Shown here: piece after piece, positions 9,173 to 15,200 of the stretch
Layout of the letters: each line of letters starts with the position of its first letter
Numbering within the stretch: the first letter of the stretch is position 1
NCBI RefSeq assembly: GCF_019976755.1
Contig: NZ_AP023441.1
Span: forward strand, 3,678,919-3,710,918
Source of the DNA: Nostoc sp. MS1
GTDB lineage: Bacteria > Cyanobacteriota > Cyanobacteriia > Cyanobacteriales > Nostocaceae
Direction: 5' to 3'
DNA length: 32,000 nucleotides
Program-made: the position numbers and the translations under genes
The notes under the pieces: generated by a model
What the model saw: only the letters and a program-made list of their open reading frames with translations
Databases searched by the model: none
Told to the model about the DNA's origin: nothing

Positions 9173-11611
9173 ATGCAACTTGTGCCAAAAACTCAGCTTA
9201 ACCCAGAACCAACCCCCCCATTAGAGAAAATTATTCTGGATGTTGGCGGGATGAAGTGTGCTGGGTGTGTAAATGCAGTAGAGCGACAGCTTACCCAACA
9301 GTCAGGGGTAAAAAGTGCCTGTGTGAATCTAGCTACAGAGGTAGCGGTGGTGGAGTCTGAAGTTGGCGCGGTAGATCCAGATATGCTGGCACAGCGACTA
9401 ACAAAAGCTGGATTTCCTAGCCAGCCCCGCAAGCCTAGAGATCAAGCAGGTGAATCAACTCTAGAAGATTCAGCACAAAGACAGCGCCAACAGATGCAAG
9501 CGGCATTTCGGCAGTTAATCATTGCTGGGGTGCTATTAGTCTTTTCTGGAATTGGTCACTTAGGCAATCTTGGCGGCTCAATTCCCGTATTAAATAACAT
9601 CTGGTTCCACTTTGGATTAGCAACGGTAGCAATATTAATTCCTGGCCGTCCTATTGTGGTTGATGGGTGGTTAGGATGGCGACGTAATGCGCCAAATATG
9701 AATACCTTGATAGGATTGGGAACACTCACAGCCTATACAACCAGTGTAGTGGCTTTGTTTTTTCCCCAAATGGGTTGGGAGTGCTTCTTTGACGAACCAG
9801 TAATGATGCTGGGCTTTATTCTATTGGGCAGGACATTAGAACAACAAGCAAGAGGTAAGGCGGCTGCGGCATTTAGACAACTGCTGGCACTACAACCACA
9901 AGTAGCAAGATTGATTGCTAATCCAGATGCCGAGAAGATGGGATTGGGAGCAAATACTGTAGAAATCCCAGCCGAGCAAGTAAAGGTGGGAGAATGGTTG
10001 CAAGTTCTGCCAGGAGACAAAATCCCTGTTGATGGTGAAGTGAGTTTCGGGCAGACAACGGTGGATGAGTCGATGTTGACTGGGGAAGCTGTACCAGTAA
10101 TTAAGCAACCAGGAGATACAGTAACAGCAGGGACAATTAACCAATCAGGTGCGATCGCTATCAAAGCCACCCGTACAGGCAATGATACCACCCTCGCCCA
10201 CATTGTCGCCCTAGTAGAAGCTGCCCAAACCCGCAAAGCCCCAATTCAAAAATTAGCCGACACAGCCGCAGGCTACTTTACCTACGCCATCCTCACCGCA
10301 TCTCTATTAACATTCATCTTCTGGTACTTCTTCGGCACACACATCTGGCCAGATGTCGTCATGTCCGGCGGTGGTATGCCAATGATGAGCCATACTGCCC
10401 ACTCCCCACTCCCTACTCCCCACTCCCCCCTCCTTGTTAGTTTAAAACTAGCGATCGCCGTCATGGTCGTTGCTTGTCCCTGTGCTTTAGGACTAGCCAC
10501 ACCCACAGCCATACTTGTAGGTACTGGCATAGGTGCAGAACGCGGTTTATTAATCAAAGGCGGCGATGTCTTAGAAAGAGTACATCAGCTAGATACCATA
10601 GTTTTCGATAAAACCGGCACTCTCACCACAGGTAATGCAGTCGTTACCGATTGCGTTGTTTTGGCAGAAGGCAGTGGTGAATTATTATCTCCCTCATCTC
10701 CCCCCACTCCCCACTCCCCACTCCCCACTCCCTACTCTCTCCTCCAACTAGCCGCAGCAGTCGAAAGCGGCACACACCACCCCTTAGCTAAAGCCATTCA
10801 GCAAACGGCAAAACAACAAAAGCTATCAATTCCTGAAGCTGTGGATTTCCATACTGAGCCAGGAATGGGTGTTTCTGCTGTGGTGGATGGTGAAACTGTG
10901 CTGTTGGGTAATTGGGATTGGTTAAGTTGGCATGGTATTACTTTAAGTGAAACAGCCCAACAGGCAGCGCAAAAGTTAGCCACGGATGGTAAAACTGTGG
11001 TTGGTGTAGCAGTTCGAGAGACTTTAGCCGGACTGATTGGTGTGCAAGATACCATTAGACCAGATGCTCAAGCTACAGTAGAGAAATTGCGGCAGATGGG
11101 CTTGCGGGTGGTGCTATTAAGTGGCGATCGCACCGAAGCTGCCAATGCCATAGCGCAACAACTAGGTATTGATAGCGCTGATGTAGTCGCAGGGGTTCCG
11201 CCAGCGAAAAAAGCTGCATTTATTGAAGAACTACAAACAAAAGCTGCTAAAGTAGCGATGGTTGGGGATGGTATAAATGATGCCCCGGCTTTATCGCAAG
11301 CAGATGTGGGGATCGCTTTACACTCAGGTACAGATGTGGCGATGGAAACTGCACAGATCGTCTTGATGCGCGATCGCATTGGCGATGTTGTGGAATCGAT
11401 TCAGTTGAGCCGCGCCACCTTCAACAAAATCCGGCAGAATTTGTTCTGGGCATTTGCGTATAACACCCTTGGTATCCCCCTCGCAGCAGGTGTTTTACTT
11501 CCCAACCTTGGCTTTGTGCTGAATCCTTCTGGTGCGGCTGCGTTGATGGCATTTAGTTCAGTGAGTGTAGTCACTAACTCTTTGTTATTACGGCGGTTAG
11601 CTCATCGTTAA
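9173..11611 (+). CDS. Copper-translocating P1B-type ATPase (CtaA/PacS/CopA class)
   Basis: It has an N-terminal HMA domain with GMKCAGCV. Further motifs are TGEAVPV, transmembrane CPC (VACPCALGLATP), DKTGTLT, the HP motif (SGTHHPLAKAI) and GDGINDAPAL. Length is 812 aa. Confidence 0.92.
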   Translation: MQLVPKTQLNPEPTPPLEKIILDVGGMKCAGCVNAVERQLTQQSGVKSACVNLATEVAVVESEVGAVDPDMLAQRLTKAGFPSQPRKPRDQAGESTLEDSAQRQRQQMQAAFRQLIIAGVLLVFSGIGHLGNLGGSIPVLNNIWFHFGLATVAILIPGRPIVVDGWLGWRRNAPNMNTLIGLGTLTAYTTSVVALFFPQMGWECFFDEPVMMLGFILLGRTLEQQARGKAAAAFRQLLALQPQVARLIANPDAEKMGLGANTVEIPAEQVKVGEWLQVLPGDKIPVDGEVSFGQTTVDESMLTGEAVPVIKQPGDTVTAGTINQSGAIAIKATRTGNDTTLAHIVALVEAAQTRKAPIQKLADTAAGYFTYAILTASLLTFIFWYFFGTHIWPDVVMSGGGMPMMSHTAHSPLPTPHSPLLVSLKLAIAVMVVACPCALGLATPTAILVGTGIGAERGLLIKGGDVLERVHQLDTIVFDKTGTLTTGNAVVTDCVVLAEGSGELLSPSSPPTPHSPLPTPYSLLQLAAAVESGTHHPLAKAIQQTAKQQKLSIPEAVDFHTEPGMGVSAVVDGETVLLGNWDWLSWHGITLSETAQQAAQKLATDGKTVVGVAVRETLAGLIGVQDTIRPDAQATVEKLRQMGLRVVLLSGDRTEAANAIAQQLGIDSADVVAGVPPAKKAAFIEELQTKAAKVAMVGDGINDAPALSQADVGIALHSGTDVAMETAQIVLMRDRIGDVVESIQLSRATFNKIRQNLFWAFAYNTLGIPLAAGVLLPNLGFVLNPSGAAALMAFSSVSVVTNSLLLRRLAHR
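10398..10432. repeat. Heptamer tract CCCACTC x5 (one CCTACTC and one CCCCCTC variant) inside the ATPase CDS
   Basis: Direct reading. The tract encodes HSPLPTPHSPL, in the loop just before the CPC helix. Confidence 0.85.
10703..10737. repeat. Heptamer tract CCCACTC x5 (last unit CCTACTC) inside the ATPase CDS, preceded by tctccctcatctcc
   Basis: Direct reading. The tract encodes PTPHSPLPTPYS, between DKTGT and the HP motif. Confidence 0.85.
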
Positions 11612-11642: not shown

Positions 11643-11723
11643 CCTCTCCCCGACGCGGGGAGAGGCTTAAAAGTATGATTGGTACTTGGCAAATTGTTAG
11701 CCCCTTCTCTACAAGGGAAGGGG
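11643..11723 (+). terminator. Two GC-rich hairpins downstream of the ATPase (possible terminator and/or dispersed hairpin repeats)
   Basis: CCTCTCCCC-gacgc-GGGGAGAGG lies at 11643-11665 and CCCCTTC(tc)-tacaa-(gg)GAAGGGG at 11701-11723. Neither has a strong U-tract. Confidence 0.35.
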
Positions 11724-11807
11724 TTGGGGTTAGGTTTCTGACTCGACGTTATTTAATGCGCTAAACTGTGGTACATAAGTATAAACTCGTAATATTATTA
11801 TTAACTT

Positions 11808-12266
11808 ATGGAACCAGTAACCTTAACAGCCGTAGGAACTGCGATCGCTACTATAGTTTTAACTAAGGCTTTAGAAAGAACAGGCGAAATGCTGGGGGAA
11901 GCTGCATTAGAAAAAAGTAACGAGTTAATCGCACAGCTACGCCAGAAAAATAAGCTGCCCTTGTTAGCGAATACGTCACAGGAAAACACACAGCAGGCGT
12001 TAGATTATGGTCAAGCTGTGTTGGAGTTGAAAGCCGCAGCCGATACAGACACTGAAATTGCTCAATCAGTACGGGAAGTAGAAGCAACAATCAATCAAGA
12101 TCAGTCCCAGAGTGCTGAGAAAATTCAAAAATTAGCCGCAGAAATTCAAGCGCAGCCATCAATTGTTAATAACTTTGCCAAGTTAGCAGAAAGTATCCAA
12201 GCTGAAAAAGGGTCAATGGTTGCCCAACAAATCATAATTAATAATCCGCAAAACACATACAACTGA
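11808..12266 (+). CDS. 152-aa all-helical protein with a hydrophobic N-terminal helix; likely the detached N-terminal (effector-position) domain of the downstream NLR-like gene
   Basis: The ORF runs from an ATG to TGA 12264-12266, in the same frame as the ORF at 12336-14924. The sequence starts MEPVTLTAVGTAIATIVLTKALE and ends in the Q/N-rich QQIIINNPQNTYN. Confidence 0.55.
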   Translation: MEPVTLTAVGTAIATIVLTKALERTGEMLGEAALEKSNELIAQLRQKNKLPLLANTSQENTQQALDYGQAVLELKAAADTDTEIAQSVREVEATINQDQSQSAEKIQKLAAEIQAQPSIVNNFAKLAESIQAEKGSMVAQQIIINNPQNTYN

Positions 12267-12335
12267 CTACAGTCGCCTGAACAGGAACGGGTAAAGTCAA
12301 ATCCTGAAATACCGCAAAATTTACCCCTGAGTGGG

Positions 12336-14924
12336 GTGGTGAAATTTGTAGGACGTGATGAAGAACTGCAAGAACTCCATGAACTTTTGCAGGAAAATAA
12401 CCAAGTGCTGACTGAGCGTAGTCGAAGTGTAGCCATTGCAGCTATTTTGGGAATGGGTGGACTGGGTAAAACAGAACTCGCCTTGCAATATGCCATGACT
12501 CAGCGCGAAAACTACAAAGGTGGACTGTGCTGGTTACAGGCGAAAGCTGGGGATGTGGGGGTTCAAGTGGTGCGGTTTGCCAGAACTCAGCTTGATTTAA
12601 ACCCACCAGAAGAATTTGATTTACCTGCACAAGTACAATACTGCTGGCGGAATTGGCGTGAGGGTAATGTGCTGCTGGTGGTGGATGATGTTACAGATTA
12701 CCAGCAAATTAAACTTTACTTACAGGGTGTATCTTCCCGATTTAAAGTGTTGATGACTACCCGCAAAAAGTTAGGTGCAGCTATCAAGCAATTATCTTTG
12801 GATATATTACAACCAGATGCAGCCTTGGAGTTTTTACAGTCTTTGCTGGCAGAAACACCAGAGCGAATTGAGAGAGAATTAGATGTAGCAAATCAATTGT
12901 GCGAATGGCTGGGGTATTTGCCTTTGGGTTTAGAGTTGGTGGGGCGATATCTGGCGCGAAAACCGGATTTATCCCTATTGAAAATGATGGGGCGATTAAA
13001 GGAAAAGCGACTAGAACAACCTGCACTTGTCAAGCCAGAAGCCGATATGAGAGAACAAAGGGGAGTGCAAGCCGCCTTTGAGTTGAGTTGGCAAGAATTA
13101 GCAGAGGATGACAAACAATTAGACTGTGTACTCAGTTTATTTGCAGCAGCGCCCATACCCTGGAAATTAGTAGAACAGTGCTTACCAGAGAAAGATAAGG
13201 ATGAGTTAGAAGAAATTCGGGATGATAAATTATTGAATCTGCATCTACTCCAGCGCAAAGGTGAAGAAATTTATCAACTGCATCCCCTACTGCGGGAATT
13301 TTTCCAATCTAAGCTTACAGATTTAGAGCAGATAGAGGAATTTAAGGAATGGTTTTGTCAGGTAATGGTAGCAGTTGCCCAAGAAATTCCTGAGACTCCT
13401 ACCCTTGAGGAAATCAACGCTGTTTCCCTTGCAATACCACACATAGCTGAAGTAGCAAACAATCTCATTCAATACGTTAGTGATGAATATTTAACTTGGC
13501 CTTTTATCGGCTTGAGTCGTTTCTATCAAGGACAAGGGTTATATACCCAAGCCGAACCTTGGAATCAACAGTGTTTATCAACTGTACAAAACCGCTTTGG
13601 AGACAATCATCCCTCAGTCGCCACTAGCCTCAACAACTTGGCTGAACTCTACGATTATCAAGGAAAATACGACCAAGCCGAACCCCTGTTACTCCAAGCT
13701 TTAGAACTCAGACAACGCCTGCTGGGAGACAATCATCTTGATGTCGCAGCCAGCCTCAACTGCTTGGCGGGACTCTACTATTCCCAAGGAAAATACGACC
13801 AAGCCGAACCCCTGTTACTCCAAGCTTTAGAACTCAGACAACGCCTGCTGGGAGACAATCATCTTGATGTCGCAGCCAGCCTCAACTGCTTGGCGGGACT
13901 CTACTATTCCCAAGGAAAGTACGACCAAGCCGAACCCCTGTTACTCCAAGCTTTAGAACTCCTTCAACGCCTGCTGGGAGACAATCATCCCGATGTCGCT
14001 ACTAGCCTCAACAACTTGGCTGAACTCTACAATTCCCAAGGAAAGTACGACCAAGCCGAACCTATGTTTCTCCAAGCTTTAGAACTTGATAAACGCCTGC
14101 TGGGAGACAATCATCCTTCAATCGCCACTAGCCTCAACAACTTGGCATATCTCTACAAATCCCAAGGAAAGTACGACCAAGCCGAACCCCTGTTTCTTCA
14201 AGCTTTAGAACTCCATCAACGCTTGCTGGGAGACAATCATCCTCTTGTCGCCACTAGCCTCAACAACTTGGCATATCTCTACGATTCTCAAGGAAAGTAC
14301 GACCAAGCCGAACCCCTGTTTCTCCAAGCTTTAGAACTCAGACAACGCCTGCTGGGAGACAATCATCCCGATGTCGCTACTAGCCTCAACAACTTGGCAT
14401 TACTCTACAATTCCCAAGGAAAGTACGACCAAGCCGAACCCCTGTTACTCCAAGCTTTAGAACTCCTTCAACGCTCGCTGGGAGACAATCATCCCCTTGT
14501 CGCCTCTAGCCTCAACAACTTGGCATATCTCTACAATTCCCAAGGAAAGTACGACCAAGCCGAACCTATGTTTCTCCAAGCTTTAGAACTCCATCAACGC
14601 CTGCTGGGAGACAATCATCCCCTTGTCGCCTCTAGCCTCAACAACTTGGCATATCTCTACAATTCCCAAGGAAAGTACGACCAAGCCGAACCTCTGTTAC
14701 TCCAAACTTTAGAACTCAGACAACGCCTGCTGGGAGACAATCATCCCGATGTCGCTACTAGCCTCAACAACTTGGCATTACTCTACAATTCCCAAGGAAA
14801 GTACGACCAAGCCGAACCTCTGTTACTCCAAGCTTTGAATATTTTAGAGCGAAGTTTAGGAGCGAATCATCCTCATACTGTGAGTGTGCGTGAAAATTTA
14901 GCACTTTTACGCGATTCTCTCTAA
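12336..14924 (+). CDS. NLR-like STAND NTPase: NB-ARC domain plus about eleven TPR (TPR_10/12-type) repeats
   Basis: Motifs present are FVGRDEEL, Walker A GMGGLGKT, Walker B LLVVDDV, MTTR and GYLPLGLELVG (GLPL-like). These are followed by 42-aa units AEPLxLQALELxQRLLGDNHPxVAxSLNNLAxLYxSQGKYDQ. The track start is a GTG with no clear ribosome-binding site, and the frame stays open back to the TGA at 12264. Confidence 0.85.
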   Translation: MVKFVGRDEELQELHELLQENNQVLTERSRSVAIAAILGMGGLGKTELALQYAMTQRENYKGGLCWLQAKAGDVGVQVVRFARTQLDLNPPEEFDLPAQVQYCWRNWREGNVLLVVDDVTDYQQIKLYLQGVSSRFKVLMTTRKKLGAAIKQLSLDILQPDAALEFLQSLLAETPERIERELDVANQLCEWLGYLPLGLELVGRYLARKPDLSLLKMMGRLKEKRLEQPALVKPEADMREQRGVQAAFELSWQELAEDDKQLDCVLSLFAAAPIPWKLVEQCLPEKDKDELEEIRDDKLLNLHLLQRKGEEIYQLHPLLREFFQSKLTDLEQIEEFKEWFCQVMVAVAQEIPETPTLEEINAVSLAIPHIAEVANNLIQYVSDEYLTWPFIGLSRFYQGQGLYTQAEPWNQQCLSTVQNRFGDNHPSVATSLNNLAELYDYQGKYDQAEPLLLQALELRQRLLGDNHLDVAASLNCLAGLYYSQGKYDQAEPLLLQALELRQRLLGDNHLDVAASLNCLAGLYYSQGKYDQAEPLLLQALELLQRLLGDNHPDVATSLNNLAELYNSQGKYDQAEPMFLQALELDKRLLGDNHPSIATSLNNLAYLYKSQGKYDQAEPLFLQALELHQRLLGDNHPLVATSLNNLAYLYDSQGKYDQAEPLFLQALELRQRLLGDNHPDVATSLNNLALLYNSQGKYDQAEPLLLQALELLQRSLGDNHPLVASSLNNLAYLYNSQGKYDQAEPMFLQALELHQRLLGDNHPLVASSLNNLAYLYNSQGKYDQAEPLLLQTLELRQRLLGDNHPDVATSLNNLALLYNSQGKYDQAEPLLLQALNILERSLGANHPHTVSVRENLALLRDSL
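13551..14921 (+). repeat. Tandem 126-bp coding repeats (TPR units) with very high nucleotide identity
   Basis: Units start at 13551, 13677, 13803, 13929, 14055, 14181, 14307, 14433, 14559, 14685 and 14811. Units 13677-13802 and 13803-13928 differ at a single base (ggaaaatac versus ggaaagtac). Confidence 0.9.
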
Positions 14925-14970
14925 TGAGAACACGAAAATTTACCTTCCCAACCTCATCACTCTAGTTTTT

Positions 14971-15200
14971 ATCTCCAAGTTTCCTGTTTTGAACTCAAAG
15001 TTTTATGTTCAGAACCCGAACTTTTGTGTTGCAAACGAGAATGTTCCTATTTCCAACTAAAGTACTCTTGTTTTTAGTGAGAACGTTCTTGTTCTAAACG
15101 AGAATGTTTCTGTTGCAAACGAGAACGTTCCTGTTTCCAGTGAGAATGTTCTTGCGGCAAAGGAGAATCTTCTAGTTCTGAGGTCGAATGATGGTGTAGA
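14971..15200. repeat. Array of about 11 degenerate direct repeats in strict 21-bp phase, core gAGAAYGTTCYTGTT
   Basis: The core GAGAA(C/T)(G/C)TTC recurs at 15037, 15079, 15100, 15121, 15142 and 15163. Spacings are 42 bp for the first pair (a degenerate unit sits in phase at 15058) and 21 bp for the rest. Degenerate units lie in phase at 14974, 14995, 15016, 15058 and 15184. AGAACGTTCT is itself a palindrome. Confidence 0.8.

Follow-up and report, generated by a model that had tools for sequence, protein, structure and literature searches.

In a 32,000-nucleotide (nt) stretch of the Nostoc sp. MS1 genome (contig NZ_AP023441.1), referred to here as the window, an open reading frame (ORF) of 152 amino acids (aa), ORF1, ends at a UGA stop codon, and the same frame continues behind this stop into an NLR-type STAND NTPase with an NB-ARC module and tetratricopeptide repeats (TPR; Table 1). 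The present analysis concerns this stop codon, which is probably leaky, and the RNA element behind it. A preliminary description of the locus had placed both ORFs in one frame, parted by a single TGA and 23 codons, and a re-reading of the layout confirmed this. The frame is open from two consecutive GTG codons at 12336 and 12339 to 14924, and joining ORF1, the stop and the downstream ORF gives 152 + 1 + 885 = 1038 codons. The predicted tripartite architecture of N-terminal domain, NB-ARC and TPR was borne out by Pfam, which matched NB-ARC (PF00931) with an E-value of 1.3e-15 and 57.8 bits against a cut-off of 23.5, as well as 11 TPR_12 and 11 TPR_10 stretches. Read from the GTG at 12336, the downstream ORF is identical to BCL36699.1 (NSMS1_31460), which RefSeq names 'tetratricopeptide repeat protein'. 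The exact ORF1 protein is absent from a collection of 15 billion proteins, whereas BCL36699.1 from the same strain is present, and ORF1 seems to be unannotated, or to have been given another start, in Nostoc sp. MS1.

Table 1. Features of the ORF1-NLR locus, in coordinates of the window.
Feature	Position	Strand	Remarks
ORF1	11808..12263	+	ATG at 11808, 152 aa; Bell-like all-helical effector domain, then disordered tail
C-terminal tail of ORF1, AEKGSMVAQQIIINNPQNTYN	12204..12263	+	Q/N/I-rich; candidate amyloid-signalling (BASS-like) motif
In-frame UGA and +4 C	12264..12267	+	TGA 12264-12266, C at 12267; proposed readthrough stop
Spacer CUACAGUC	12267..12274	+	8 nt from stop codon to hairpin; alignment A2
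Post-stop linker LQSPEQERVKSNPEIPQNLPLSG	12267..12335	+	23 sense codons; coding only upon UGA readthrough
Hairpin S1	12275..12292	+	GCCUG (12275-12279) pairs with CGGGU (12288-12292); 8-nt loop AACAGGAA
Candidate pseudoknot stem S2	12282..12306	+	loop CAGGA (12282-12286) with UCCUG (12302-12306)
A-rich connector AAAGUCAAA	12293-12301	+	between S1 and the 3' arm of candidate S2
NB-ARC/TPR STAND NTPase	12336..14924	+	annotated from GTG; exact match to BCL36699.1
Walker A GMGGLGKT	12450-12473	+	read in translation; Walker B LLVVDDV also visible
TPR array	13599-14836	+	tandem repeat, 126 nt x 9.8 copies

The stop codon was compared in 79 loci that were fetched with the family alignment from species-representative genomes, out of 280 confirmed loci. 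They belong to Nostoc, Calothrix, Scytonema, Nodularia, Brasilonema, Aetokthonos, Limnofasciculus and other genera, and their ORF1 is 56-94% identical to that of the window. The alignment of orthologues at this position, which the preliminary description had proposed as a check, revealed TGA in all 79 loci and TGA-C in 78 of them. Among 265 other long ORFs of the same loci TGA terminates 29%, and TGA-C, at 3.4%, is among the rarest contexts. The codon after the stop in 73 distinct sequences was CUA (39), CUG (29), CCA (3), UUG (1) or CUC (1). Moreover, the same TGA was found in about 68 metagenome contigs, and a syntenic orthologue on a PCC 7120-type chromosome (L158, CP183817.1 4562265-4572723) has the same junction. 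A sense codon in place of the TGA was found in none of the 50 matches that a junction query returned for close relatives.

In 75 of the 79 loci the frame is open straight from the stop, for 426-1308 codons or up to the contig end. The four exceptions (L034, L043, L049 and L079) are decayed copies with a broken ORF1 or downstream frame, and they keep TGA-C and the RNA element in the canonical place. The preliminary description had reasoned that a fusion would be contradicted if ORF1 were conserved by itself, away from NB-ARC genes; in 75 of the 79 loci it precedes a STAND NTPase in frame, and the other four are the decayed copies. At neighbouring synonymous sites the divergence (dS) amounts to 0.6-1.0 substitutions per site. 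Without constraint the stop would have changed to TAA or TAG, and both a sequencing error and a recent nonsense mutation are thereby ruled out. Judged from this comparison, the TGA at the junction is an old, selected feature, and the earlier wording that the N-terminal domain is 'cut off' by it does not hold.

The strongest evidence is the RNA element past the stop, which the preliminary description did not see. We aligned the region from -12 to +63 around the stop in 73 distinct sequences (alignment A2). Its nucleotide conservation exceeds what coding demands, with Ser always encoded by TCG, Val by GTA and Lys by AAG. The synonymous divergence of post-stop codons 1-13/14 is 0.26 in loci of the NB-ARC type, compared with 0.6-0.8 elsewhere, and 0.12 in loci of the NACHT type, compared with about 0.95 and up to 0.98 elsewhere. 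The length of the spacer is invariant, as A2 has no gaps ahead of column 31, and RNAalifold predicts a hairpin of 5 base pairs (bp), S1, that starts exactly 8 nt past the UGA. Its first pair is G-U in 54 and G-C in 19 sequences, the second C-G (53), U-A (19) or U-G (1) and the third C-G in all 73; the fourth is C-G (31), U-A (25), U-G (12), G-C (1) or unpaired (4), and the fifth G-C (56), C-G (13) or unpaired (4). Three of the five pairs thus vary on both sides in a compensatory manner. Overall, 97.8% of the alignment cells pair in S1; shuffling gave 84.6 +/- 1.0% and did not reach this value in any of 500 runs, and sliding the partner gave 6-39%. All five pairs are formed in 65 of the 73 sequences, whereas randomisation of synonymous codons with the peptide kept gives a mean of 2.1 and a maximum of 9 of 73. 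In an independent metagenome set, which adds 56 new sequences, S1 pairs in 280 of 280 cells, of which pairs 3-5 are free and the others are partly constrained by the search pattern; new arm combinations were GCCGG/CCGGC, GTCTG/CAGAC and GCCCG/CGGGC.

A second stem, S2, is a candidate: the purine-rich loop of S1 is complementary to a pyrimidine run that lies 8-9 nt (AAAGUYAA) past the 3' arm of S1. The pairing is CAGGA/UCCUG in the window and GGGA/UCCC, GAGA/UCUC, GGGAG/CUCCC or GGGGAU/AUCCCC elsewhere. For the core of 4 bp, evaluated with our own script in the genome set, 95% of the cells pair compared with 23-65% after sliding, a value that none of 2000 permutations reached, and one pair alternates between G-C and A-U without a mismatch. 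S2 would complete an H-type pseudoknot, which is plausible, and the comparison lends it moderate support. In addition, an outer helix may form between UGACU (12264-12268, including the stop) and AGUYA (12295-12299; columns 13-17 and 47-51 of A2), which are paired in 98%. No compensatory change occurs in A2 for this helix, and its Y is also forced by coding, as TAA or TGA would be stops. It could sequester the stop codon in ribosome-free mRNA, or it could be a coincidence that results from coding limits.

A covariance model built from A2 had exactly one match in the window (12252-12321, 80.8 bits) and one match per locus elsewhere, with second copies in the tandem arrays of L057 and L068. An Rfam search of 11700-12700 with E-values up to 10 returned chance-level matches, none of them on the element. 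Two other roles were considered for this region and rejected. The loop sequence resembles a Shine-Dalgarno motif and might be a start signal, but the sole nearby ATG occurs in the NACHT type, where it lies outside the frame and runs into a stop 4 codons later, and NB-ARC-type loci have no ATG there. TadA-type A-to-I editing of the UGA is argued against by the motif, as the context is UGACU and not UACG.

The 23 codons between the TGA and the GTG had been suspected to be coding, and the substitution pattern in 52 NB-ARC-type and 22 NACHT-type loci agrees with this. Beyond the RNA element, the ratio of nonsynonymous to synonymous substitutions (dN/dS) of the linker is 0.33 in the NB-ARC type, and it is 0.30 from codon 15 to the Walker A motif in the NACHT type. 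The adjoining NTPase and ORF1 coding regions have values of 0.20-0.28 (0.20-0.24 flanking the NB-ARC-type linker). All length differences in the linker are whole codons. Stops in frames 0, +1 and +2 number 0, 128 and 58 in the first 75 nt past the TGA of the 52 NB-ARC-type loci and 0, 123 and 256 in the first 330 nt of the NACHT type. The preliminary description had pointed to a similar linker in single-polypeptide cyanobacterial NB-ARC-TPR proteins, and among the relatives found with the junction query P0285, P0295, P0276 and P0283 indeed carry other N-terminal domains fused straight onto the same xPxNLPLSGVVKFVGR linker.

The statement that no ATG lies between the TGA and the Walker A motif proved correct, as the first ATG past the TGA of the window is codon 63, the M within GMGGLGKT itself. 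The further claim of a missing Shine-Dalgarno sequence ahead of the GTG stands for a GGAGG-type sequence, which is absent from CCCCTGAGTGGG, and is weaker than stated beyond that. In the NACHT-type loci L051, L063 and L066 there is no ATG, GTG or TTG from the TGA to the Walker A motif; the first start codon is codon 139-147 and Walker A lies at codon 113. Likewise, the first start codon of L071 comes after Walker A. Therefore, the intact NTPase of such loci would be made solely by translation across the stop. The GTG that annotators use in the window is lacking in L053, L056, L057 and L061.

Just ahead of Walker A the window has a 24-nt in-frame insert, CTGACTGAGCGTAGTCGAAGTGTA (12408-12431, peptide LTERSRSV), which is missing from most orthologues and present at the same site in L005 and L013. 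Its 18-nt core recurs at unrelated sites in L014 (2082) and L062 (1744, minus strand). The insert looks like a small dispersed Nostocales repeat that was inserted in a coding region.

The family of ORF1 comprises 161 homologues, and a profile search of 1.84 billion cluster representatives matched 336 of them. The 120 homologues listed span 89-199 aa, and together with the best 150 of the representatives all are 43-213 aa long except for three long representatives. One of these three, the distant relative P0242, is a true natural fusion without a stop, in which NACHT follows a Bell-like domain and its tail. Hence, the effector-NLR fusion architecture is viable. Families of Pfam, NCBIfam and PADLOC did not match ORF1. 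The AlphaFold2 model (pLDDT 70) has six helices, the first at residues 6-25, and residues 134-152 are disordered. Foldseek with this model against PDB gave nothing significant (best E-value 2.4, weak Bcl-2 and Rx-CC helical bundles), and a sequence profile search of PDB gave no match.

Bell domains have been described as domains of about 100-140 aa with a hydrophobic N-terminal helix and an acidic residue at position 2 or 3, which are encoded collinear with an NLR and are frequent in Nostocaceae (bioRxiv 10.1101/2020.01.06.895854; 10.1101/2024.11.07.622273). They are related to fungal HeLo, the plant CC domain and the MLKL four-helix bundle, and a 'MEPIS' N-terminal motif is common to Bell, Avs2 and some bNACHT proteins (same sources). 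ORF1 fits these published characteristics in size, in its helical domain and in its N-terminus MEPVTLTAVGTAIATIVLTKALE, a hydrophobic helix with E at position 2 (MEP...), and, as for Bell domains, it is located directly upstream of an NLR in a filamentous cyanobacterium. The ORF1 homologue of L065 (RCJ37669), the Nostoc Bell example of the paper itself (RCJ33357) and the tail strings are absent from the supplements of the Bell/BASS paper. As profile and fold searches gave no significant match, the designation 'Bell-like' rests on shared features.

BASS motifs are about 25 aa long, have a high content of Q, N, G, V and I, and are located at the C-terminus of the effector and repeated at the N-terminus of the NLR. 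The tail of ORF1 fits this description in composition, and the related NLR P0289 bears a similar motif (NNQGNFNITYN) at its N-terminus. Together with the predicted disorder this makes the tail a candidate amyloid-signalling (BASS-like) motif. The family has two tail types. The canonical BASS pairing was not found in the window, as neither the linker LQSPEQERVKSNPEIPQNLPLSG nor the beginning of NB-ARC contains a counterpart of the tail (…MVAQQIIINNPQNTYN). The NLR would carry the tail motif solely within the readthrough product.

Upstream of ORF1, a strong terminator-like hairpin (14 pairs, 11697-11727) lies behind the gene of a Cu-type P-type ATPase (9173-11611). ORF1 therefore probably begins its own transcript, and a search upstream of 11808 found no promoter consensus. 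Between ORF1 and the NLR ORF neither a promoter-like site nor a terminator-like site on the + strand was found. Past the NLR gene, the intergenic region 14965-15167 contains degenerate tandem repeats (GTTTTGAACTCAAAGTTTTAT-like) with periods of 21 and 42 nt and 67-76% matches.

The junction is shared by different NTPases. Its linker has the consensus L-x-S-[PS]-x-x-E-x-[VT]-K-x-[NT]-P, and the proteins past the same UGA, hairpin and linker are NB-ARC-TPR, as in the window, or NACHT-HEAT-NCC-H with or without NCAB1. The TPR array of the window consists of 9.8 copies of a 126-nt unit with 90% identity, two of the 42-aa units being identical, and is strongly homogenised, like the fast-evolving repeat sensors of fungal and bacterial NLRs. 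In L071 (6436-8421) an NB-ARC-DUF7779 protein ends in a phycobilisome-protein-like (globin-fold) domain (PF00502, E-value 1.9e-36), a candidate for an unusual sensor domain in place of the TPR repeats. The distant member L080 (1374-2474), like L081, has a short TIR_2 protein and no NTPase in frame past the UGA and hairpin, and readthrough there would yield a Bell-like/TIR fusion. The assignment to an Avs-type or other named defence family could not be upheld: PADLOC on the proteins of the window gave the generic TPR model PDLC01169 and weak partial matches, and no system-specific model.

The upstream partner varies as well. When metagenome contigs were scanned for the DNA motif by itself, 72 stretches matched; about 68 show this arrangement again, and most of the ORFs upstream are members of the ORF1 family. 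In L094, L111, L117, L127 and L131 the upstream ORF is an alpha/beta-hydrolase (DUF676/PGAP1-type serine esterase) and in L113 a TIR domain, and each ends in a short Q/N/T/G-rich tail right before the UGA. The frame continues into NB-ARC (L094, L111, L113), a NACHT-type protein (L117) or a P-loop protein (L127), and the contig of L131 stops 29 codons past the TGA, with the downstream protein out of view. With hydrolase and TIR ORFs also terminating at this UGA-hairpin junction, the cassette is not restricted to the Bell-like family. Two whole effector-UGA-NLR units lie in tandem about 5-6 kb apart in L057 (2206-2278 and 7174-7249) and L068 (192-267 and 6409-6484), which indicates local duplication of such systems. 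The tail type …NTYN is found with both NB-ARC and NACHT partners and therefore suggests module exchange at the junction.

Taken as a whole, the locus is probably a single translational unit with a programmed leaky UGA, and of the four explanations offered in the preliminary description regulated readthrough is the best supported. Ribosomes starting at 11808 would make the 152-aa (17-kDa) Bell-like membrane-targeting protein with its Q/N-rich tail, and most of them would terminate at the UGA. UGA-C would present the weakest bacterial termination context, and a hairpin or small H-type pseudoknot 8 nt past the stop would sit at the mRNA entrance while the UGA is in the A site. A minority of ribosomes may then insert an amino acid, most likely Trp via tRNA-Trp, and continue in frame. 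The predicted product is a 1038-aa effector-linker-NB-ARC-TPR protein of about 117 kDa with the junction peptide ...GSMVAQQIIINNPQNTYN-X-LQSPEQER. In this way a fixed high ratio of free effector over effector-tagged sensor would arise, following the logic of retroviral Gag and Gag-Pol, and the sensor would receive the identical effector and tail. Once the TPR sensor is triggered, the NTPase may oligomerise and cluster the N-terminal copies of effector and tail; these could activate free effector molecules or act as a template for them, and the free effector would then attack the membrane and kill the cell as abortive defence or programmed cell death. The ratio could follow the translational state, as decoding of UGA-C would depend on release factor 2 (RF2). 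A UGA-C context is used for RF2-sensitive recoding in prfB.

The proposed unit resembles several known systems in part. Bell/BASS and NLR pairs (Dyrka et al.; Bab/Agp) likewise have a helical protein of about 100-150 aa with MEP... and a Q/N/G-rich tail, directly upstream of and collinear with an NB-ARC or NACHT NLR; they are common in Nostocaceae, and TIR and other effectors may replace Bell. However, the canonical pairs have two copies of the amyloid motif and two independently translated, often overlapping genes, whereas the NLR ORF of the window lacks a motif copy and the ORFs are always in frame with UGA-C and structured RNA between them. The architecture predicted for the readthrough product, with membrane-targeting helical domain, STAND NTPase and repeat sensor, is also that of all-in-one bacterial NLRs with an N-terminal Bell/HeLo-like 'MEPIS' helix (Avs2, bNACHT02/11/23), and the arrangement of free effector and NLR parallels fungal HET-S/NWD2; in contrast to our locus, these consist of one unbroken polypeptide or of two distinct genes.

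Viruses and eukaryotes offer well-known cases of programmed stop-codon readthrough. The gag-pol junction of murine leukaemia virus is similar in that a leaky stop is followed by an 8-nt spacer and a compact RNA structure, a pseudoknot, and an abundant short and a rare extended product are made at a fixed ratio. It differs in being eukaryotic viral, with UAG and a larger pseudoknot, whereas here UGA, an S1 of 5 bp and a candidate S2 of 4-6 bp lie on a bacterial chromosome. Bacterial ribosomes bypass a UGA in weak context for a minor functional product in phage Qbeta, whose A1 protein is made by readthrough of the coat stop, and in prfB. Both lie outside cellular immune genes; a stimulatory 3' structure is not known for Qbeta, and prfB uses a +1 frameshift rather than readthrough. 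To our knowledge, programmed readthrough in bacteria is confined to this one phage and a few isolated genes, with no stimulatory RNA structure except for the selenocysteine insertion sequence (SECIS). The literature searched contained no description of readthrough in cyanobacterial, NLR, NACHT, Bell or defence-system loci. Stop codons and readthrough are mentioned neither in the two Bell/BASS papers nor in two conflict-system papers of one group (PMC7159879 and PMC8195603) nor in a 2026 paper on bacterial pattern-recognition STAND receptors (PMC13581612).

Several points weigh against programmed readthrough at this locus. We infer readthrough, its efficiency, the inserted amino acid, S2, the extended product and the whole downstream signalling model from evidence that is wholly comparative. 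Folded alone, the RNA of the window is no better than shuffles (z = 0.04), and the structure becomes visible in the comparison. S1 is short, with 5 bp of which two are G-U in the window, and the shuffle statistics overstate independence because the sequences are related. S2 is not significant in the metagenome set, where 138 of 500 shuffles equal it and the search pattern fixes part of it. In loci of the NB-ARC type, that of the window among them, translation could also start independently or re-initiate at the conserved GTG GTG (Val-Val), so that some effector-less NLR may be made. The proposed homology of ORF1 to Bell domains is likewise drawn from shared features and not from a profile match. 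Finally, we know of no RNA structure, SECIS for selenocysteine aside, that has been demonstrated to stimulate readthrough on bacterial ribosomes.

Alternatively, two proteins may be made by translational coupling, with the NLR starting independently or re-initiating at the GTG (12336/12339) or its equivalent and the RNA element governing coupling or mRNA stability. Annotators place the NLR start at this GTG (BCL36699.1), GTG GTG is kept in most NB-ARC-type loci, and canonical Bell/NLR pairs are collinear, closely spaced and probably co-transcribed genes. Moreover, the gene calls of nearly all relatives treat ORF1 as a gene of its own, and to this extent the two-gene split considered in the preliminary description has a basis; the shared frame, the coding linker and the missing starts imply that the downstream part is not independent. 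Coupling could do without a shared frame and without an open linker, yet both are present in 75 of the 79 loci, and coupling would not hold the stop identity and the +4 base to the rarest and weakest context. The protein-level purifying selection on the linker ahead of the GTG also speaks against it, as do the loci without a start codon before Walker A (L051, L063, L066) or without the GTG (L053, L056, L057, L061). We therefore regard coupling as unlikely. Still less probable is that the in-frame layout is a relic and the element serves otherwise, as a recombination joint of effector and sensor, an RNase site or a protein-binding site, the NTPases being translated otherwise or mostly inactive. 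Such a role would suit the joining of varied effectors to varied NTPases, the shared …NTYN tail and the tandem copies. However, covariation keeps the base pairing of S1, which favours a single-stranded nucleic-acid structure over plain homology, and the long downstream ORFs are intact and evolve under purifying selection, where a relic frame would decay at the dS observed. Recombination or another role may be an additional function of the element.

A conserved UGA with a conserved hairpin close behind is also the layout of a bacterial SECIS, and dedicated recoding of the UGA, to selenocysteine or by a lineage-specific UGA-reading suppressor tRNA, has to be weighed as well. We consider it very improbable, as the selenocysteine trait was not detected in Cyanobacteria (PMC1794560), the Rfam search, which included SECIS, gave no match, and the stem has just 5 bp. 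The position belongs to a linker between domains rather than to a redox centre, and no homologue with Cys at the UGA position was found; the sole stop-free fusion found, P0242, has Ser. The window contains no tRNA gene, and the literature searched held nothing relevant on an opal suppressor tRNA in Anabaena. A sequencing or assembly error or a recent pseudogenising mutation, both raised in the preliminary description, has nothing in its favour beyond the bare in-frame stop. With TGA in 79 of 79 independent assemblies, in the metagenome contigs and in the PCC 7120-type orthologue, its probability is next to nil.

Programmed readthrough would thus join two known kinds of system, programmed stop-codon readthrough and effector/NLR signalling pairs. 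Species-representative cyanobacterial genomes contain at least 280 loci of this family, and every member examined shows the full signature, as do matching metagenome contigs. The loci belong to immune or cell-death systems of the NLR type, on which research is very active at present. Nostoc/Anabaena PCC 7120 is a tractable model strain, and the question is directly testable at the syntenic orthologue on the PCC 7120-type chromosome. If confirmed, readthrough would mean that bacterial ribosomes respond to a 3' structure at a stop codon, and re-annotation would be due for these loci, which at present appear as a 'hypothetical protein' plus a 'tetratricopeptide repeat protein' whose start is arbitrary. 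It would also explain how a scarce toxic sensor is made alongside an abundant effector.

Beyond this locus, the chances seem about even that filamentous cyanobacteria own a portable recoding cassette, consisting of UGA-C, an 8-nt spacer and a small pseudoknot within the LxSxExExxKxNP linker, that gives readthrough at a set frequency. Whole NLR-type families would thereby make, from one message, an effector-tagged sensor and a free death effector, whether Bell-like, TIR or lipase-like, that has an amyloid-type tail in each case. If true, bacterial cellular genes would have their first known RNA structure that stimulates readthrough, and amyloid signalling a one-gene route, in which the cassette fixes the stoichiometry and ensures that both partners carry the identical templating motif.

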